Source: a virus
Lineage: Duplodnaviria > Caudoviricetes
DNA length: 36,953 bases
Strand: one strand, 5' to 3'
IMG/VR virus record: IMGVR_UViG_3300029891_000007
Location: 1 to 36,953 of that record
Shown: in pieces, positions 2,670 through 17,161 of the stretch
Layout: each line of letters starts with the position of its first letter
Position numbering within the stretch: position 1 is the stretch's first letter
The notes under the pieces: model-generated
What the model was told of the DNA's origin: nothing
What the model saw: the letters and a program-made list of their open reading frames with translations, nothing else
The model's database searches: none
Translations under genes and position numbers: made by a program

Positions 2670-2967
2670 AGTCGCCACTGTCAAGAACCACGAGATGACG
2701 TCGGAGTTTCCGAGCCTCAGGAAACTGTGCGATCGGCACGGTTTCGCCGAAGTCTCTCGCATGTTCGGCCTGTCTGATTCTGCTGTGAACCAGATGATCA
2801 CGGCAGGCCGGTGCCGACCGGTCTACGAATTGGCTGCAACCCTGATCCTCGAGAAGGAGGAGAAGACTGAAGCCATGCTGGTCATGAAGGTGAATGCCCA
2901 GCAGAAGACCGCCATGCTGCCCATTCTGGCAGCGATGAACATCACCTACATGGACCTCGATCTATGA
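2650..2967 (+). CDS. Putative HTH DNA-binding protein
   Basis: FAEVSRMFGLSDSAVNQMI helix-turn-helix pattern. Confidence 0.65.
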   Translation: MPQVGTEVATVKNHEMTSEFPSLRKLCDRHGFAEVSRMFGLSDSAVNQMITAGRCRPVYELAATLILEKEEKTEAMLVMKVNAQQKTAMLPILAAMNITYMDLDL

Positions 2968-3479
2968 ACCTGTTCGTGCTCGATGAAGACCCCGTGGTCG
3001 CTGCCGCTGGCTTGGATGACAAGCGCATCGGCAGCGCCTTGCGCGAGGCGAACCAGATGATGTCGACCGCAATTCTGCGCTTCGGAGAGGGCGTGGAGAC
3101 CGGCGTGGGGCTGGCTACCCTGCCCAGCCATGAACACCATCCAGTGACGCTCTGGGTGGCCTCGACAAGCGGGAATTTCGCGTGGTGCCTTGCCTATGCG
3201 CAGGCGCTGGTGAAAGAATGGGGAATTCGCTACGGAACTCACCATTCGTCCGCAGATCGTGTGCCCTACATCGCAACCTTTTCCAGTTGTCTTCCAGCCG
3301 GGCCGCTGCTACCGTTCCAAAATAGTGCGAGACATGAAGGTCTGGGAGTCGACTTCACACACCTTCCCGTCCCGGAGTCGTATCGTGCGTATCTCCAGGA
3401 ACGTTGGAAGACAGACAAGCGAGCCCCGACCTACTCGAATCGAGGGTGGCCGGAATGGGCGCAGAGGTCAAAGCCGTGA
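2964..3479 (+). CDS. Pyrimidine-dimer DNA glycosylase family protein (DenV/endonuclease V-like)
   Basis: MNLFVLDEDP..AA..LDDKR...EANQMMSTA, HHPVTLWV, NFAW, SYRAYL and W-rich C-terminal motifs. Confidence 0.75.
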   Translation: MNLFVLDEDPVVAAAGLDDKRIGSALREANQMMSTAILRFGEGVETGVGLATLPSHEHHPVTLWVASTSGNFAWCLAYAQALVKEWGIRYGTHHSSADRVPYIATFSSCLPAGPLLPFQNSARHEGLGVDFTHLPVPESYRAYLQERWKTDKRAPTYSNRGWPEWAQRSKP

Positions 3480-5324: not shown

Positions 5325-5539
5325 AGAACGCAATCCGTGATGTCTCCGGCATGATTGCCGGGGAACTTCAGGTCGGCGAGGACGAGGATTTCGCCTTGAT
5401 CCTTGCTGAGACCACGCTGGACGCTGGACGTCTGGCGATGAACGGGCATCGTGAAGCCCAAGAGGAACTGCGGTCCCTGCTCGACACGTCGTCGTGGGAC
5501 GAGGTCCTGGAGGAGGCGAAGAAGTATGTCTGCTATTGA
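5321..5539 (+). CDS. Acidic hypothetical protein; probable CTG start at 5321 (alternative ATG at 5351)
   Basis: SD AGGGAG at 5310-5315, then CTGA overlapping the upstream stop. Confidence 0.55.
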   Translation: MKNAIRDVSGMIAGELQVGEDEDFALILAETTLDAGRLAMNGHREAQEELRSLLDTSSWDEVLEEAKKYVCY

Positions 5540-7727: not shown

Positions 7728-7876
7728 CGAAGCCACTTCCCGTCCTTGTAGGTGAACTGACCTTTGCCTACAAGGGCGACCTTCTCAGCGAAGGATATCT
7801 TTCTGCGATTGACCATCTTCCACTGATCAAGTTGTGCGACGAAGGATGAGACAGCTTCGTTCCTTTCCTGTGTCAT
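7721..7876 (-). CDS. Small hypothetical protein (51 aa), not in the ORF track
   Basis: MTQERNEAVSSFVAQLDQWKMVNRRKISFAEKVALVGKGQFTYKDGKWLRQ*; ATGA overlap with 7873..8511. Confidence 0.55.
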   Translation of the reverse strand: MTQERNEAVSSFVAQLDQWKMVNRRKISFAEKVALVGKGQFTYKDGKWLRQ

Positions 7877-8511
7877 TGAAAGCTCCGTGGCTTCTTGCCC
7901 GTGATTTCTACCTTCGGAGACGGAAGCTCATCCTCGTGATTTCTCTCCAGAATTGCTTTCCAATCTGGCTCGTCTCGCACGAATTTCCACAATCTAGTTT
8001 CGTAGATATCTAGATATTCCGTGTCCTCGGAGTTACCCAGCGCGTCCAGCTCACCCTCCAGTTCACCCATGGACCCAATAGGCTCCTCGGGCGCGACAGC
8101 TTCGTTGAAAAAATCGGTGAACCATGTGCAGATCATCCATTCCAATCCATACTGGAGGTCCAAGATATGGCGGAATGTGTAGGTCATGGTCGGTTTGCCG
8201 ACTACTCTGTTGTTCACCATCAAGCGTGGCTCATACAGGATTGCTCCCGTAACGATGTATCCCATCTGTGTCTTGCTGATGATCTGCTGCAAATCTGGGA
8301 AACAGTAATCATAGAGGTCAGAGATTGCGACCTGTTTCTCAATCATTCCTCGCTTAACTGCACGATACAGTCTTGCTTGGGCGATCATTGAAGCAGTCTC
8401 ACAAACGCGGAACAGCTTCTTCCCTCTCTTGGGCAAAGTCGCATACTGCAGAACCTCCCCTGTAGATGGATGGATGCGGGGTCTTGTGGGCTGATTGGGA
8501 TTTACGGGCAT
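7873..8511 (-). CDS. Hypothetical protein (212 aa) adjacent to the origin-like element
   Basis: Only long ORF in the interval; lower GC than neighbours. Confidence 0.7.
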   Translation of the reverse strand: MPVNPNQPTRPRIHPSTGEVLQYATLPKRGKKLFRVCETASMIAQARLYRAVKRGMIEKQVAISDLYDYCFPDLQQIISKTQMGYIVTGAILYEPRLMVNNRVVGKPTMTYTFRHILDLQYGLEWMICTWFTDFFNEAVAPEEPIGSMGELEGELDALGNSEDTEYLDIYETRLWKFVRDEPDWKAILERNHEDELPSPKVEITGKKPRSFQ

Positions 8512-8522
8512 GATGGGCCTAT

Positions 8523-8806
8523 GTGATGTCAGGTGATGTCACTCGACTGCAAGTATACAAACATCTATAAACCGTAAGACGTTGTTTGAACACGGATAAT
8601 TGGCTGGAATTGACTTATTGTTTGATGTATAGGATGTTCGCCCAAGGGTTCTGAGCGCCAGCCTCCTGCGTAATTTACCGTAGGTCCTAAAGTAGTATAC
8701 AGACTTCTTAATACTCTATAGAGTAGTATAAAGAGTATAGTTTACAAGGGGTTGAGGGGTAAGGAGTTCGAACACCTTGACAGCCAGTGACATCACCTGA
8801 CATCAC
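8523..8806. repeat. AT-rich element bounded by a perfect 21-bp inverted repeat; putative replication origin
   Basis: GTGATGTCAGGTGATGTCACT at 8523-8543 and its exact reverse complement at 8786-8806; internal palindrome TACTCTATAGAGTA (8712-8725); AGTAGTATA twice. Confidence 0.7.
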
Positions 8807-8911
8807 TTAGCAATCGGGAGGATACAGGGATTGCGCTTCCTCCTTGGGCTGTGATAACCTCTTTAGCGGGAGATCTCTTCTGTTTCATCTTCGCACGAAT
8901 ACAGGTGACGA

Positions 8912-10068: not shown

Positions 10069-10110
10069 GCAGGCGGTCCTTCCCGACCCGAGGACCGCCT
10101 GCTCTTCTTT
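10069..10110 (+). terminator. Intrinsic terminator
   Basis: GCAGGCGGTCCT-10 nt-AGGACCGCCTGC followed by TCTTCTTT. Confidence 0.75.
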
Positions 10111-10170
10111 GGGCATCCCTCCTCATCATCTTCCGATCTTCTTCCTCGACCGACATCTTCAAATTCGTCC

Positions 10171-10470
10171 ATCGACCGAGTGACTTAATCCGACGACGAT
10201 GAAGAAGACGCCAATCGACCGAGTGACTTAACTCGAAGAGGAAGAAGAAGACGCGGTCCTCCCTCGATCGGTCCTCATCTTCTTCTTCGTCCGCCACGAT
10301 CCTGCCACGATCCTGCCACAATCGTGAAATCGTGTCGTTCGTGCAACACTCGTCATCTTTTTCGTCCGCGCCTCATTTCCGCCTTATTCTCGCCACAATC
10401 GTCGTGTCCGTGTCGTTTTGACCACACTCCTCAAAATCTTCTTCTTCCGCCTTATTCTCGCCACATTCTT
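10171..10470. repeat. Cluster of short direct repeats
   Basis: ATCGACCGAGTGACTTAA at 10171 and 10214; GCCACRAT-like at 10293, 10304, 10315, 10392 and 10460; TTCCGCCTTATTCTCGCCACA at 10377 and 10445. Confidence 0.8.
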
Positions 10471-10542
10471 CGGCTAGTCGCGCTCGCCCCCGCCGTTCGC
10501 AAACAGGCAACAAACTTTTTATTTTCCGGTCGCAATTAGGGC

Positions 10543-10604
10543 TTGCAGTCGTTGCGGGGTGGGCGTATATATATATAGGTCATAGGCAGCGCGGTGCTGC
10601 CTAC
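10543..10604 (+). promoter_or_regulatory. Strong sigma70-like promoter with AT-rich upstream tract and 5' hairpin
   Basis: TTGCAG(10543)-17 nt-TATATA(10566); A/T tracts at 10501-10525; hairpin TAGGCAGC-GCGGT-GCTGCCTA. Confidence 0.7.
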
Positions 10605-10626: not shown

Positions 10627-11013
10627 ATGGCTACCACCAAAATCGCCCCCGCCGCCACCGTCGCCAAGAAAATCGCGCCGGTCGCCGCCCCCGCCGCCGC
10701 CCCCGCCGCGCCGACCTACATGCTGCGCAGCTACGACCCGGCGATCAAGCAGGGCTGGCCGGTCAAGGCCCAGACGGGCAACTCCATCCGCGCCTATTGC
10801 TACACGGTCGCCAAGAAGCTGGCCGAGCAGCACAAGGGCGGGTTCACCGCCGCCCAGTTCGCCAGCGCCCTTGCGGCCAACGCGGCGGGGTCCACCTACA
10901 AGCAGCCGAGCACCGGTTGGGGCACCGAAGCCAAGCCCAACGGCGCGGCCCACTCCCACGCCAACTGGTTCGTCAACGCCAAGCAGGCGTGGCTCGTGCC
11001 GGTCAGCAAGTAA
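10627..11013 (+). CDS. Basic Ala/Lys/Pro-rich protein (128 aa), candidate immediate-early DNA-binding or host-takeover factor
   Basis: SD AAGGA; optimal codons; PAA-repeat N-terminal tail; only 3 acidic residues. Confidence 0.75.
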   Translation: MATTKIAPAATVAKKIAPVAAPAAAPAAPTYMLRSYDPAIKQGWPVKAQTGNSIRAYCYTVAKKLAEQHKGGFTAAQFASALAANAAGSTYKQPSTGWGTEAKPNGAAHSHANWFVNAKQAWLVPVSK

Positions 11014-14891: not shown

Positions 14892-15728
14892 ATGGATCCG
14901 CTTGAACTTTCCTACGACAAAATGGACGCAGTGCCTGAGGCCTTCCGTCCGCTCTACGAAGAGAAGGACGGGAAAGCTGTTCTCACCCGCATCAACGGGA
15001 TGAAGACGCAGCAGGACGTTTTCAACGTCCAGGAAGCGCTCCGCAAGGAGCGTGAAGATCACGGCAAGACGCGTGATGCGTTCAAACCGTGGAAAGCCTT
15101 CGGCGACGACCCGACTGCTCTGCAGTCCAAGCTCGATCGCATCGCTGAACTCGAGGCTGCCGCTGGCGGCAAGCTCGACGACGCCGCGATCAACAAGCTG
15201 GTGGAAGCTCGTCTTGGGCAGAAGACTGCCCCGCTCGAACGTCAGCTCAAGGACATCGCCGGCGAACGTGATACCGCAGTTTCGGAGCGTGACGCTCTGC
15301 GCTCGGCCATCCAACGCCGTGACATGAACGATGTCGTCCGGGCTGTGGCTACCGAGATGAAGGTCCTGGCGACCGCCATCCCCGATGTGGAGATGGTTGC
15401 TGCCTCCTACCTCGAACGCGATCCGACTTCCGGCGAATTCATCGTGAAGGCCGACGCCAAGGGTGTGACGCCCGGCAGCGATCTCAAGGGCTTCATGAAA
15501 GAGATGCAGAAGCTCCGTCCTCACTGGTGGCCTGCTTCGCAGGGCGGTGGTGCTGGCGGTGGCGGCGGGTTCGACAACGTCGACGACAACCCGTGGTCGG
15601 CGAAGGGCTGGAACCTCACGAAGCAGGGCGCCTACGTGAAAGAGCACGGCATGGCGAAAGCTGAACTGGCCGCGAAAGCTGCGAACTCGCGTGTCGGTGC
15701 AACTCGGCCGACCCAGCCGAGCAAATGA
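14892..15728 (+). CDS. Capsid scaffolding protein
   Basis: VPEAFRPLYEEKDGK N-terminus, coiled coil, Gly-rich linker and NPW...WNLTKQG C-terminus; position before the major capsid gene. Confidence 0.8.
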   Translation: MDPLELSYDKMDAVPEAFRPLYEEKDGKAVLTRINGMKTQQDVFNVQEALRKEREDHGKTRDAFKPWKAFGDDPTALQSKLDRIAELEAAAGGKLDDAAINKLVEARLGQKTAPLERQLKDIAGERDTAVSERDALRSAIQRRDMNDVVRAVATEMKVLATAIPDVEMVAASYLERDPTSGEFIVKADAKGVTPGSDLKGFMKEMQKLRPHWWPASQGGGAGGGGGFDNVDDNPWSAKGWNLTKQGAYVKEHGMAKAELAAKAANSRVGATRPTQPSK

Positions 15729-15731
15729 GCC

Positions 15732-15760
15732 TTGCGCCCCGCGCTGTCGGGGCGTATATA
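15732..15760 (+). promoter_or_regulatory. Sigma70-like promoter for the intergenic ncRNA
   Basis: TTGCGC(15732)-17 nt-TATATA(15755); shares GGGCGTATATA with the promoter at 10543. Confidence 0.7.
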
Positions 15761-15764
15761 GGCA

Positions 15765-15970
15765 GGGCAGGGGCGGGGTGTGGTAGCCGACCGCCGCTGT
15801 GCCCGGCAGGAAACTGCCAGTCCCCCGGTTGAGCACACCGCGCTCCCGGGGGACACTTCTACCGAGCCCAGCGGACACTGGGTATACTCTCACGTGGACC
15901 CGGCTGTCCGGCTGGCGAGGAGAGTGGTAGGTGCCCCGGCGACTTCCTCCTCCCTGTCGCCGGGGCATTT
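15765..15970 (+). ncRNA. Candidate ~205-nt structured RNA with two loop-loop pseudoknots and a terminal CCUCCUCCC hairpin
   Basis: Seven contiguous helices, a GAAA tetraloop, complementary loops, its own promoter and a terminator-like 12-bp hairpin. Confidence 0.65.
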
Positions 15971-15986
15971 CGCAACAAAAACACTG

Positions 15987-16015
15987 TTGCCATTCCTGCA
16001 AGCTCCAGCTATGTT
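15987..16015 (+). promoter_or_regulatory. Sigma70-like promoter of the major capsid gene
   Basis: TTGCCA(15987)-17 nt-TATGTT(16010). Confidence 0.65.
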
Positions 16016-16027
16016 GACACTGTTTTC

Positions 16028-16070
16028 TGATGGCATGGGTCATCACCCGAACCGGCGAACGTGGGTTCGC
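16028..16070 (+). promoter_or_regulatory. Twin C-RUGG-G hairpins in the capsid 5' UTR
   Basis: TGATGGC-ATGG-GTCATCA and GCGAAC-GTGG-GTTCGC. Confidence 0.55.
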
Positions 16071-16096
16071 GATCCCCAACTCGAAAGGAACACACA

Positions 16097-17161
16097 ATGG
16101 CCGCAGGTCCGGCAGTTCGGGTGAGCGACGTCATCGTCCCCGAAATCTTCACTCCCTACACGCAGACCCTCACCGAGCAGAAGTCGCGTCTGGTCCAGTC
16201 CGGCCTCCTGGCTCGCTCGGCCACTCTCGACGAGAAACTCGGTGGCGGCGGCATCACCTTCAACGTGCCGTCGTTCAACGACCTGGACAACGATGCCGAT
16301 CGCATCTCGACCGACACTTCGGTGCCGTTCGCCGATGCCGACGCTTCGCTCCCGGCCGGTGTGGCGCGTCCGCCCAATCCGCTGAAGATCGGCAGCAAGA
16401 AGGAAATCGCTGTTCGTCTGAACCGGAACAACTCCTGGTCGAGCACCGACCTCGCTGCGATCCTCGCCGGCGTCGATCCCATGAACGCCATCGCGGACCG
16501 CGTCGCGGCCTACTGGACCCGGCGTCTGCAAGCCGCCTTCATCGCCACCTGGAACGGTGTCATCGCGGACAACGCCGCGAACGACTCGGGCGATTACATC
16601 AACAACATCTCGGGCGGCGGCTTCGTCGACGGTGTGACCAACTTCTCGGCGGAAGCCTTCCTCGATGCGGCCCAGACGATGGGCGACTCGCAGGAAGACC
16701 TCGTCGCGGTGGCGGTCCACTCGGTGGTCTACAACCGGATGCTGAAGAACAACCTGATCGACTTCATTCAGGACAGCATCAACGGTCAGGCCATCTCGAT
16801 CCCGACGTTCCTGGGCCGTGAGGTCATCGTCGACGACGGTCTGCCGCGCACCGGCTCCGTCTACGATACGTGGCTGTTCGGTTCGGGTGCGACCCAGTTC
16901 GGCGTGGGCACTCCCCCGGTCCCGACCGAGATGGATCGCAAGGCTGGTGGCGGCAACGGCGGCGGTCAGGACGTGCTCTACTCGCGCGTCATGTGGTGCA
17001 TCCACCCGACCGGTCACGCCTGGATCGGCACCGCCGACGATGGTGGCCCGGCGAACACCGGCACGGCCAACGACGACCTCGACGAGGCCGCGTCGTGGAA
17101 CCGGGTCTACACCGAGCGGAAGCAGATCAAGTTCGCTCGCCTCGTCACCCGCGAAGCGTAA
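16097..17161 (+). CDS. Major capsid protein
   Basis: SD AAAGGA; SDVIVPEIFTPY, DPMNAIADRVAAYW, VHSVVY, IPTFLGREVIVDDGLP and W.RVY..KQI motifs; strongest codon bias. Confidence 0.93.
   Translation: MAAGPAVRVSDVIVPEIFTPYTQTLTEQKSRLVQSGLLARSATLDEKLGGGGITFNVPSFNDLDNDADRISTDTSVPFADADASLPAGVARPPNPLKIGSKKEIAVRLNRNNSWSSTDLAAILAGVDPMNAIADRVAAYWTRRLQAAFIATWNGVIADNAANDSGDYINNISGGGFVDGVTNFSAEAFLDAAQTMGDSQEDLVAVAVHSVVYNRMLKNNLIDFIQDSINGQAISIPTFLGREVIVDDGLPRTGSVYDTWLFGSGATQFGVGTPPVPTEMDRKAGGGNGGGQDVLYSRVMWCIHPTGHAWIGTADDGGPANTGTANDDLDEAASWNRVYTERKQIKFARLVTREA

Follow-up and report, generated by a model that had tools for sequence, protein, structure and literature searches.

What does a strongly folded segment do between the head scaffolding and major capsid genes of a tailed phage: does it serve the head, the neighbouring message, or genes elsewhere? 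The window, i.e., the whole stretch of 36,953 nucleotides that was analysed, is a 37-kb tailed-phage fragment, 59% complete, in which family matches place the small terminase, large terminase, portal, scaffold and capsid genes all on the + strand. A sequence-only reading of this locus had proposed a stand-alone, independently promoted RNA with two loop-loop pseudoknots and had drawn an analogy with phi29 prohead RNA. Judging from sequence comparison, we assign a probability of roughly 0.7 to another explanation, namely that this is a modular sRNA gene of the phage, whose product represses small non-structural genes of the same phage in trans via pairing between a seed in the RNA and a tag at translation starts.

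By capsid, the closest isolates (59-62% identity) are NP1-like Pseudomonas phages, Sphingomonas phage MMDA13 and phiJL001, and a blastn search of the window against isolate phages gave a single 25-nt match that was read as chance. From the promoter style and a cuckoo RNA motif, we infer that the host is an alphaproteobacterium. No tRNA or tmRNA was found in the window. Elsewhere in the window, a pyrimidine-dimer DNA glycosylase-like gene (PF03013) lies at 2964-3479, and two long regions with few convincing + strand genes (7730-8900 and 10100-10530), which hold short repeats and divergent-looking promoters around the small terminase gene, are likely an origin or packaging region.

Layout and conservation of the RNA

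Relatives were collected by capsid and scaffold protein (70 + 10 viral and 80 metagenome loci). Comparison with them split the element into two parts: unit A (15765-~15860), which comprises a promoter directly 3' of the scaffold gene's stop codon, a hairpin whose loop reads GG-NN-UGGUAG-CC and a hairpin resembling a terminator, and an accessory unit B. The features of unit A and its surroundings are listed here.

14892..15728, + strand: head scaffolding protein gene, the upstream neighbour (PHROG 206, E 1.9e-30)
15732..15760, + strand: predicted sigma70-type promoter of the RNA, with -35 TTGCGC (15732-37), 17 nt and -10 TATATA (15755-60), from the sequence
15765..15804, + strand: unit A hairpin 1, a variable stem presenting the seed loop (stem covariation, folds)
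15781..15788, + strand: seed UGGUAGCC, complement of the tag GGCUACCA (TGGTAG-C invariant in 17 aligned loci; tag enrichment)
15805..15818, + strand: small GAAA hairpin, unconserved (missing or different in relatives)
15820..15854, + strand: unit A hairpin 3, with a variable loop, terminator-like in relatives (relatives' sequences)
15987..16015, + strand: separate promoter-like site of the capsid gene (consensus scan)
16097..17161, + strand: major capsid protein gene, the downstream neighbour (PHROG 247, E 5.9e-101)

All the promoter boxes, helices and loop complementarities listed by the sequence-only reading are present where it had placed them. Its helices are as described, but the element consists of two parts, and what it called domain 2 is an optional add-on. 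It had overlooked the invariant motif UGGUAG(C/U)C in loop 1 and CCUCCUCCC in the last loop. The promoter that it proposed, TTGCGC-17-TATATA, stood in part: the boxes are in the sequence and a promoter-like pattern, defined more loosely, lies right behind the scaffold stop in 13/18 unit-A loci, but a strict consensus scan reported neither the TATATA promoter nor any terminator for the RNA. The separate capsid promoter that it had placed downstream corresponds to the promoter-like site at 15987-16015.

The spacer of the RNA promoter contains a 7-bp inverted repeat. More generally, promoter spacers or the -35/-10 pair are often inverted repeats behind scaffold genes and before capsid genes (window 15735-15754 and relatives), as in TTGCACC...GGTGCAA of L013, L017 and L021; a role as operator, terminator or hairpin-promoter is possible. 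Capsid leaders (window 16023-16096 and most relatives, L002-L083) hold two short hairpins with (A/G)UGG-type loops, e.g., GAACATGGGTTC, and these are retained even in NP1, MMDA13 and phiJL001. A similar hairpin sits before the winged-helix gene discussed below, and the (A/G)UGG-loop leader hairpins are possibly sites for a translational regulator.

The proposal of a stand-alone structured noncoding RNA, outside any described family, was borne out. The segment 15760-15970 folds at -123.1 kcal/mol (z -4.2, better than 200/200 shuffles), there is no conserved peptide, as an overlapping 114-aa ORF is not kept (0-48 aa in other loci), and Rfam gave no gathering-level match in the window. An RNA-library contig spans 15569-15832, although contigs cannot show transcription; all 18 runs with matching sequence are contigs, which cannot yield RNA ends or strand.

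Unit A was found in 18 distinct loci (17 aligned and G171). On a quick tree of 81 capsid rows, the carriers all fall within a single clade (22 rows, support 100), in which 18 rows carry unit A and 4 lack it, the seedless members sitting at two or more places on the tree. In the stem of hairpin 1, 6/7 pairs tested show two-sided changes in one or more of 17 sequences, and 77% of cells are paired, as judged with a shuffle control that ignores relatedness. The loop stays UGGUAG(C/U)C throughout while the stem varies, and the single seed variant (G013) still pairs with the unchanged tag through G-U. RNAalifold recovered only the 3 loop-closing pairs of hairpin 1 on unit A because the stems are out of register. 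Hairpin 3 is followed by T-rich bases in relatives and by a weak T run in the window. As for the two loop-loop pseudoknots proposed earlier, the second is supported in lineage G017 (see below), but the first, GGTGT (15777-81) with ACACC (15835-39), is unconserved; this 5-bp match occurs in 1/18 unit-A loci, the window itself, and is thus a chance match.

A scan of IMG/VR with a 14-mer of the seed context returned ~330 stretches, near a rough chance estimate; 120 of them were viewed by eye and included 2 true unit-A loci, both L002-type. Behind unit A lies an insertion hot spot (L009:345-2400, L026 and L358-L359), with 2-kb and larger extra-gene blocks in G006 and G019. The scaffold-capsid gaps of seedless relatives (L164, L101, L037 and L011) hold other hairpins: one in L164 has a CTCCTCCC loop, and those in L101 and L037 are promoter-led, with different loops that may be alternative seeds.

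The seed complement at translation starts

Start regions were defined by an ATG, an SD-like word and an ORF of at least 35 codons, and the enrichment set contained 10 unit-A contigs, G001 and G010 having been dropped as near-copies. Among 8-mers with at least 3 start-region matches, the tag GGCTACCA ranked first, with 22/37 sites in start regions against a background of 3.8%; 9 of the 37 sites are the RNA genes' own antisense copies. Once G017 was removed, the tag ranked 4th (10/21 sites). In 10 contigs without the RNA, 0/8 sites fell in start regions, and the comparison of 22/28 with 0/8 gives a Fisher p of 1e-4, with kinship ignored. None of 16 single-base variants of GGCTACCA equals it, the nearest being GGCTACAA (5/14).

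Both where the tag lies and which way it points follow the start codon. In 37/42 start-region sites, the ATG lies between -2 and +11 bases relative to the tag's start; the distance from tag to -10 box ranges, by eye, from ~10 to 50 nt. In G017, 12/16 sites are in start regions, marking ~10 small genes that are nearly all without known family and mostly first behind promoter-like sites, and 15/16 sites are on one strand (p 5e-4). The one minority-strand tag of G204 is located at a start on that strand. Three unit-A fragments of 20-26 kb (G002, G022 and G023) have zero start-region tags within those fragments, and the window has one 8-mer tag at a start in its 59% of a complete genome. Seed and tag are both nearly invariant, which accounts for the lack of two-sided seed/target covariation, and their flanking bases match inconsistently (by eye). 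Separately, a non-coding hairpin behind a tagged gene of G017 (44423-44430) has the tag itself in its loop, on the coding strand, and is a possible sponge or processing site.

The window's tag lies at the start of one gene, the predicted main target.

10627..11013, + strand: predicted main target gene, 128 aa, with an Ala/Lys/Pro-rich N-terminal tail and a winged-helix-like domain
10629..10636, + strand: predicted target site GGCUACCA at the beginning of the 128-aa gene, whose start codon it overlaps; sole seed complement on the + strand of the window

This gene stands behind its own promoter-like site (TTGCAG 10543, TATATA 10566), and its leader contains a second CUACCA at 10601. The seed-target duplex is predicted to involve 10 bases at -17.3 kcal/mol, against opening costs of 2.4 kcal/mol for the seed, some bases of which are partly paired in the predicted ensemble, and 2.5 for the target. 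The protein is modelled as a winged-helix-like domain preceded by a disordered Ala/Lys/Pro tail (pLDDT 79), and its best fold match is weak (Z 5.8). It could be assigned neither to a Pfam or PHROG family nor to a named Atlas cluster, and Foldseek gave no match at E up to 0.001. From the winged-helix-like model and the disordered tail, we consider it likely to bind nucleic acid.

The target gene is tagged in 11/11 seed-bearing lineages with a visible start (10 exactly, G204 by a U-G wobble) and in 0/4 seedless records (G005, G008/L372, G021 and G166), a count restricted to loci in which both the scaffold end and the start of the gene are present. Of the seedless records, G021 and G166 are complete and were scanned over their full length; G005 and G008, being fragments, could hide a seed at a second locus. 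The tag lies on the target ATG in the window/G001, L380, G006, G010/G020, G019, G171 and G238, and with one wobble in G204. In G013, G017 and G229, it lies between the Shine-Dalgarno sequence and the ATG, and the protein start is different. This shift relative to the ATG, together with a different protein start, indicates that the tag is not an amino-acid effect. It should be noted that 60/97 target-protein homologues start with Met-Ala-Thr, so the tag could partly ride on protein sequence in those lineages. By eye, the winged-helix proteins of G013, G017, G204, G229 and G238 share a common variant C-terminal motif and their capsids differ widely, a pattern that suggests exchange of an early module among these phages.

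An out-of-sample scan for SD + tag + ATG gave 120 loci, and tags were counted in 98 records; the scan used a tag-containing 15-mer only, which guarantees one tag per contig. Six contigs were examined, five whole and G202 over 20 kb, and G225 (9 sites in 117 kb) was left out. Start-region tags numbered 5 in G171, 4 in G204, 4 in G229 and 7 in G238, and all four carry the seed hairpin. Pooled, these four have 20/36 sites in start regions, rank 2 of 2904, with one tag each built in. G239 and G202 (20 kb) have one tag each, and the seed hairpin is absent from them. In G171, the seed hairpin is at the scaffold-capsid site. In G204, G229 and G238, it is found in the early region, on the coding strand and with different flanking hairpins; capsid identity to the window is 56% for G204 and 49% for G238. 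The presence of the seed hairpin in the early region of tagged phages ties the seed to the tag and not to the head module.

This second-locus RNA (G229:7700-7950, G238:~18000 and G204:~22850; L570, L571 and L574) is on the same strand as the early genes and consists of a pair of 5' hairpins followed by a long stem that bears the seed loop and by a terminal hairpin. In G229, the loop of the terminal hairpin is again CCTCCTCC, the leader of the next gene has a 7-base seed match, and a comparison of this RNA with Rfam gave nothing at E up to 1. G171 has a second seed-loop copy in a long hairpin (527-570, L565), besides its scaffold-capsid copy.

The accessory 3' module

Unit B adds a junction and a final hairpin to unit A.

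15859..15930, + strand: domain 2, predicted three-way junction (joiners GAG and UAU), accessory (covariation with G017)
15872-77 / 15905-10, + strand: kissing loops CGGACA / TGTCCG of domain 2 (identical in G017)
15894-98 / 15917-18, + strand: K-turn-like bulge of domain 2 with tandem GA (from the sequence)
15932..15970, + strand: final 12-bp hairpin with a short T tail, cuckoo-like, accessory (below-threshold Rfam likeness)
15946-54, + strand: CCUCCUCCC, anti-Shine-Dalgarno loop of the final hairpin (from the sequence; motif kept in G017)

Domain 2 and the CCUCCUCCC hairpin occur together in one other lineage, G017/L023. Between the two sequences, 7/28 pairs of domain 2 change on both sides, and P1 and both kissing loops are identical. 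This covariation supports the three-way junction that the sequence-only reading had drawn and, through the surrounding helices, its CGGACA/TGTCCG pairing; the six loop-loop pairs themselves never vary and hence show no covariation. The 3-nt bulge with tandem GA pairs, which we take to fit the K-turn consensus, is retained in G017. For domain 2 of the window, a rod is predicted as the fold of lowest energy (-34.5), compared with -26.5 for the junction before K-turn or kissing terms; in G017, the junction is the lowest-energy fold and the window's rod is impossible. The final 12-bp hairpin (15932-67) followed by TTT is present as originally described, and in G017 its stem is rewritten and its loop motif kept.

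Close strains differ in this module. A contig of run X1, from a near-identical wastewater strain, joins 15860 to 15974 and is missing unit B. In runs X3 and X18, 15856-15925 is replaced by other bases and the final hairpin is kept; X3 additionally contains the window's form. By eye, the 34-base replacement in X3/X18 resembles a simple hairpin keeping a kissing-pair-like helix. L023:2105-2255 (G017) holds ~150 extra bases between unit A and domain 2 that form several hairpins with C-rich loops, for which neither an Rfam match nor start-region complements were found.

Pattern scans for homologues of domain 2 yielded G017 only, and among 83 sources, the matches of model R2 were confined to the window, its near-copy and G017. 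Scans of GTDB for domain 2 gave 0 and 13 matches, none with both stems. Models R1 and R2 had no match in 121 and 141 genomes of the class of a Sphingobium genome, in searches with candidates partly scored and no positive control, from which absence does not follow, and an ar14 family search matched nowhere, its controls being equally silent. Below the Rfam thresholds, the final hairpin scored 28.2 vs 65.3 bits for CcsR1 (E 7.8e-5) and 21 vs 58.8 for ar14, and G017 scored 33.6 vs 58.8. CCTCCTCC occurs once on the + strand of the whole window.

At starts, complements of the kissing loops show no enrichment (0-1 of 20-28 sites). Nor did the cuckoo loop yield an enriched target in the phages, with one GGAGGAGG before the window ATG at 5526 and none by rule in G017, so host messages are likelier partners of this anti-Shine-Dalgarno loop. 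The 5' strand of domain 2, CUACCG, is a complement of the seed and would permit gating, though the folding model gives this pairing no weight (predicted seed-CUACC pairing in the full RNA, 0.0). From two sequences, we favour domain 2 as an intramolecular fold protecting or spacing the 3' hairpin.

Alternative explanations and known RNAs

The same seed-tag pairing might serve superinfection exclusion or a carrier state, in which RNA made by a resident phage shuts off the first genes of a relative that enters the cell. The seed is indeed common to phages with capsids 49-56% identical to that of the window, tagged genes of G017 are mostly first behind host-type promoter-like sites, and RNA-based precedent is given by BTP1 STnc6030 and P22 sas in the available part of PMC12197685. 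However, no tyrosine integrase was detected in 5/5 records (4 of them at least 90% complete; the control matched 14/14 genomes), the genomes encode their own DNA polymerase, primase, helicase and nucleotide metabolism, and tags on the phage's own genes would be costly unless self-regulating. The integrase result favours lytic timing over immunity without settling it, and we regard exclusion as unlikely. A protein might instead recognise GGCTACCA, as a DNA operator or translational-repressor site, with the unit-A copy acting as a reversed operator or decoy. We find this quite improbable, even though tagged genes lie directly behind promoter-like sites and the main target, with its predicted winged-helix fold, could itself bind nucleic acid. 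Tag orientation follows the coding strand of each gene, the tag tracks the ATG rather than the promoter, in unit A the sequence occurs without exception as the complement and within a hairpin loop, the variant seed of G013 and the variant tag of G204 remain compatible with G-U pairing, and the winged-helix gene persists untagged in seedless phages.

A mainly cis-acting RNA, forming the scaffold message's 3' end or a capsid attenuator, with domain 2 as a ligand-sensing or folding switch, appears very improbable. Lysine and SAM-I riboswitch aptamers have a K-turn and kissing loops, and domain 2 resembles them in joining a junction, a K-turn-like bend and a loop-loop contact within ~72 nt. This riboswitch-like architecture, the two competing folds in the window and the seed complement CUACCG in the 5' strand of domain 2 would suit a cis role. 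Unlike riboswitches, however, domain 2 has no Rfam match and no host homologue in the genomes searched, and every downstream gene has its own promoter; domain 2 is not in a leader, as a hairpin and T tail follow it, then the capsid gene's separate promoter-like site. Moreover, domain 2 is dispensable, the seed-CUACC pairing is predicted at 0.0, and tags kilobases away would be left unexplained. A YuA ncRNA candidate in the 5' UTR of the YuA major head (capsid) gene, reported without function in the available part of bioRxiv 2023.10.13.562163, is a further point for a cis role. The analogy with a prohead RNA multimerising on the portal through loop-loop contacts, as drawn in the sequence-only reading, is hardly credible after these comparisons. 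pRNA is essential to the phi29-like motor, according to the available part of PMC5340915, and the likeness lies in the head-module position between scaffold and capsid genes and in a predicted three-way junction whose two 6-nt loops are fully complementary, a feature conserved in G017. Yet one near-identical strain has a clean deletion of domain 2 and two others carry a replacement, which shows that domain 2 is not an essential packaging RNA; it is rare, being found in only two lineages, the phage is of the terminase type and encodes TerS, TerL and portal, and the conserved part of the RNA, the seed hairpin, is also found away from the head module, other phages having it in their early region. 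Pairing with tRNA 3' ends, raised by a tRNA-like end in G166, was rejected, as G166 is without the seed and the start tags would be unexplained. The tRNA-like 3' end in question, GGCTACCA, lies at reverse-strand offset 6861 of G166 (L561-L564) and was uncalled by ARAGORN.

Repression in trans by seed-tag pairing has partial counterparts. According to the available part of PMC12197685, the phage or prophage sRNAs PreS, VpdS, 24B_1 and DicF act mainly on host genes or on a single phage switch gene. The window RNA is like trans-acting phage sRNAs in being short, with a predicted promoter and terminator and a short seed for several remote mRNAs. Unlike PreS, VpdS, 24B_1 and DicF, its predicted targets are the phage's own gene set with one exact tag, and the phages of these four RNAs are temperate, whereas those with the tagged regulon are without detected tyrosine integrase; no sequence or Rfam likeness to known phage sRNAs was found. 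The c4 RNA of P1/P7 and the CI RNA of P4 are phage RNAs that control phage genes through short complementary stretches, as immunity factors acting on one operon adjoining their own gene. In contrast, the predicted targets of the window RNA are many separate translation starts kilobases off, and the c4/CI family had no Rfam match in the window at E up to 10.

Cuckoo RNAs (CcsR1-4, ar14/NfeR1) are described, in the available parts of PMC4615179 and PMC8034643, as two to four consecutive motif-bearing hairpins, and the Rhodobacter CcsR RNAs as acting on flhR mRNA (PMC8034643). The final hairpin of unit B is like them in showing the CCUCCUCCC anti-Shine-Dalgarno loop. It differs in being a single, phage-borne module with sub-threshold Rfam scores, with scaffold and capsid neighbours and no DUF1127, fused to an unrelated seed hairpin and junction. 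In the literature, mostly outside subscription journals, we found no description of a phage sRNA whose regulon consists of tagged genes of the same phage. The seed motif is absent from seven supplementary files of PMC10690425 and may still be listed among the 10,000 candidates of that source. We conclude that this is a genuine phage RNA family, hitherto unlisted, whose best reading is a repressor in trans of the phage's tagged genes, with an optional structured 3' module.

In the mechanism that we propose, host RNA polymerase would transcribe the RNA from the promoter at 15732, and the stable RNA would build up during infection. The seed would pair with 8-11 bases at the Shine-Dalgarno/ATG region and block 30S loading, so that early, host-takeover-type genes would be wound down as head assembly begins. 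The tag marks the winged-helix-like gene in every seed-bearing lineage and up to ~10 further genes in some lineages. The promoter-like sites of the RNA, capsid and target genes resemble one another, and the proposed timing is accordingly tentative. In the window strain, read-through of the weak hairpin-3 terminator would extend the RNA into unit B, whose final hairpin would contribute a second, host-like anti-Shine-Dalgarno loop, probably for host or strong-SD messages. The K-turn/kissing-loop junction would most likely fold intramolecularly, shielding or spacing the 3' module.

A broader reading, which we hold to be doubtful, is that of an RNA-only gene-class switch in a virulent lineage combined with a plug-in chassis. 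As a switch, one locus-movable 8-base seed would silence any gene acquiring a matching start tag, and genes could enter or exit the regulon, of 1 to ~10 genes, by point change. As a chassis, the RNA would accept exchangeable parts in different strains, namely an anti-Shine-Dalgarno hairpin that mimics the host and a new K-turn/kissing-loop fold; this fold could lock the seed conditionally, gated by a ligand or protein.

The shutdown of the first genes in phages that use host-type promoters is a largely open question, and here sequence alone supplies an RNA, its exact seed, predicted targets, natural controls that are seedless and tagless, and three 3'-end alleles. The locus adds an RNA family and a compact K-turn/kissing-loop fold, both outside Rfam 15, as well as a phage-borne copy of an alphaproteobacterial sRNA motif. 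The tag could also pick out co-regulated genes among unknown ORFs.
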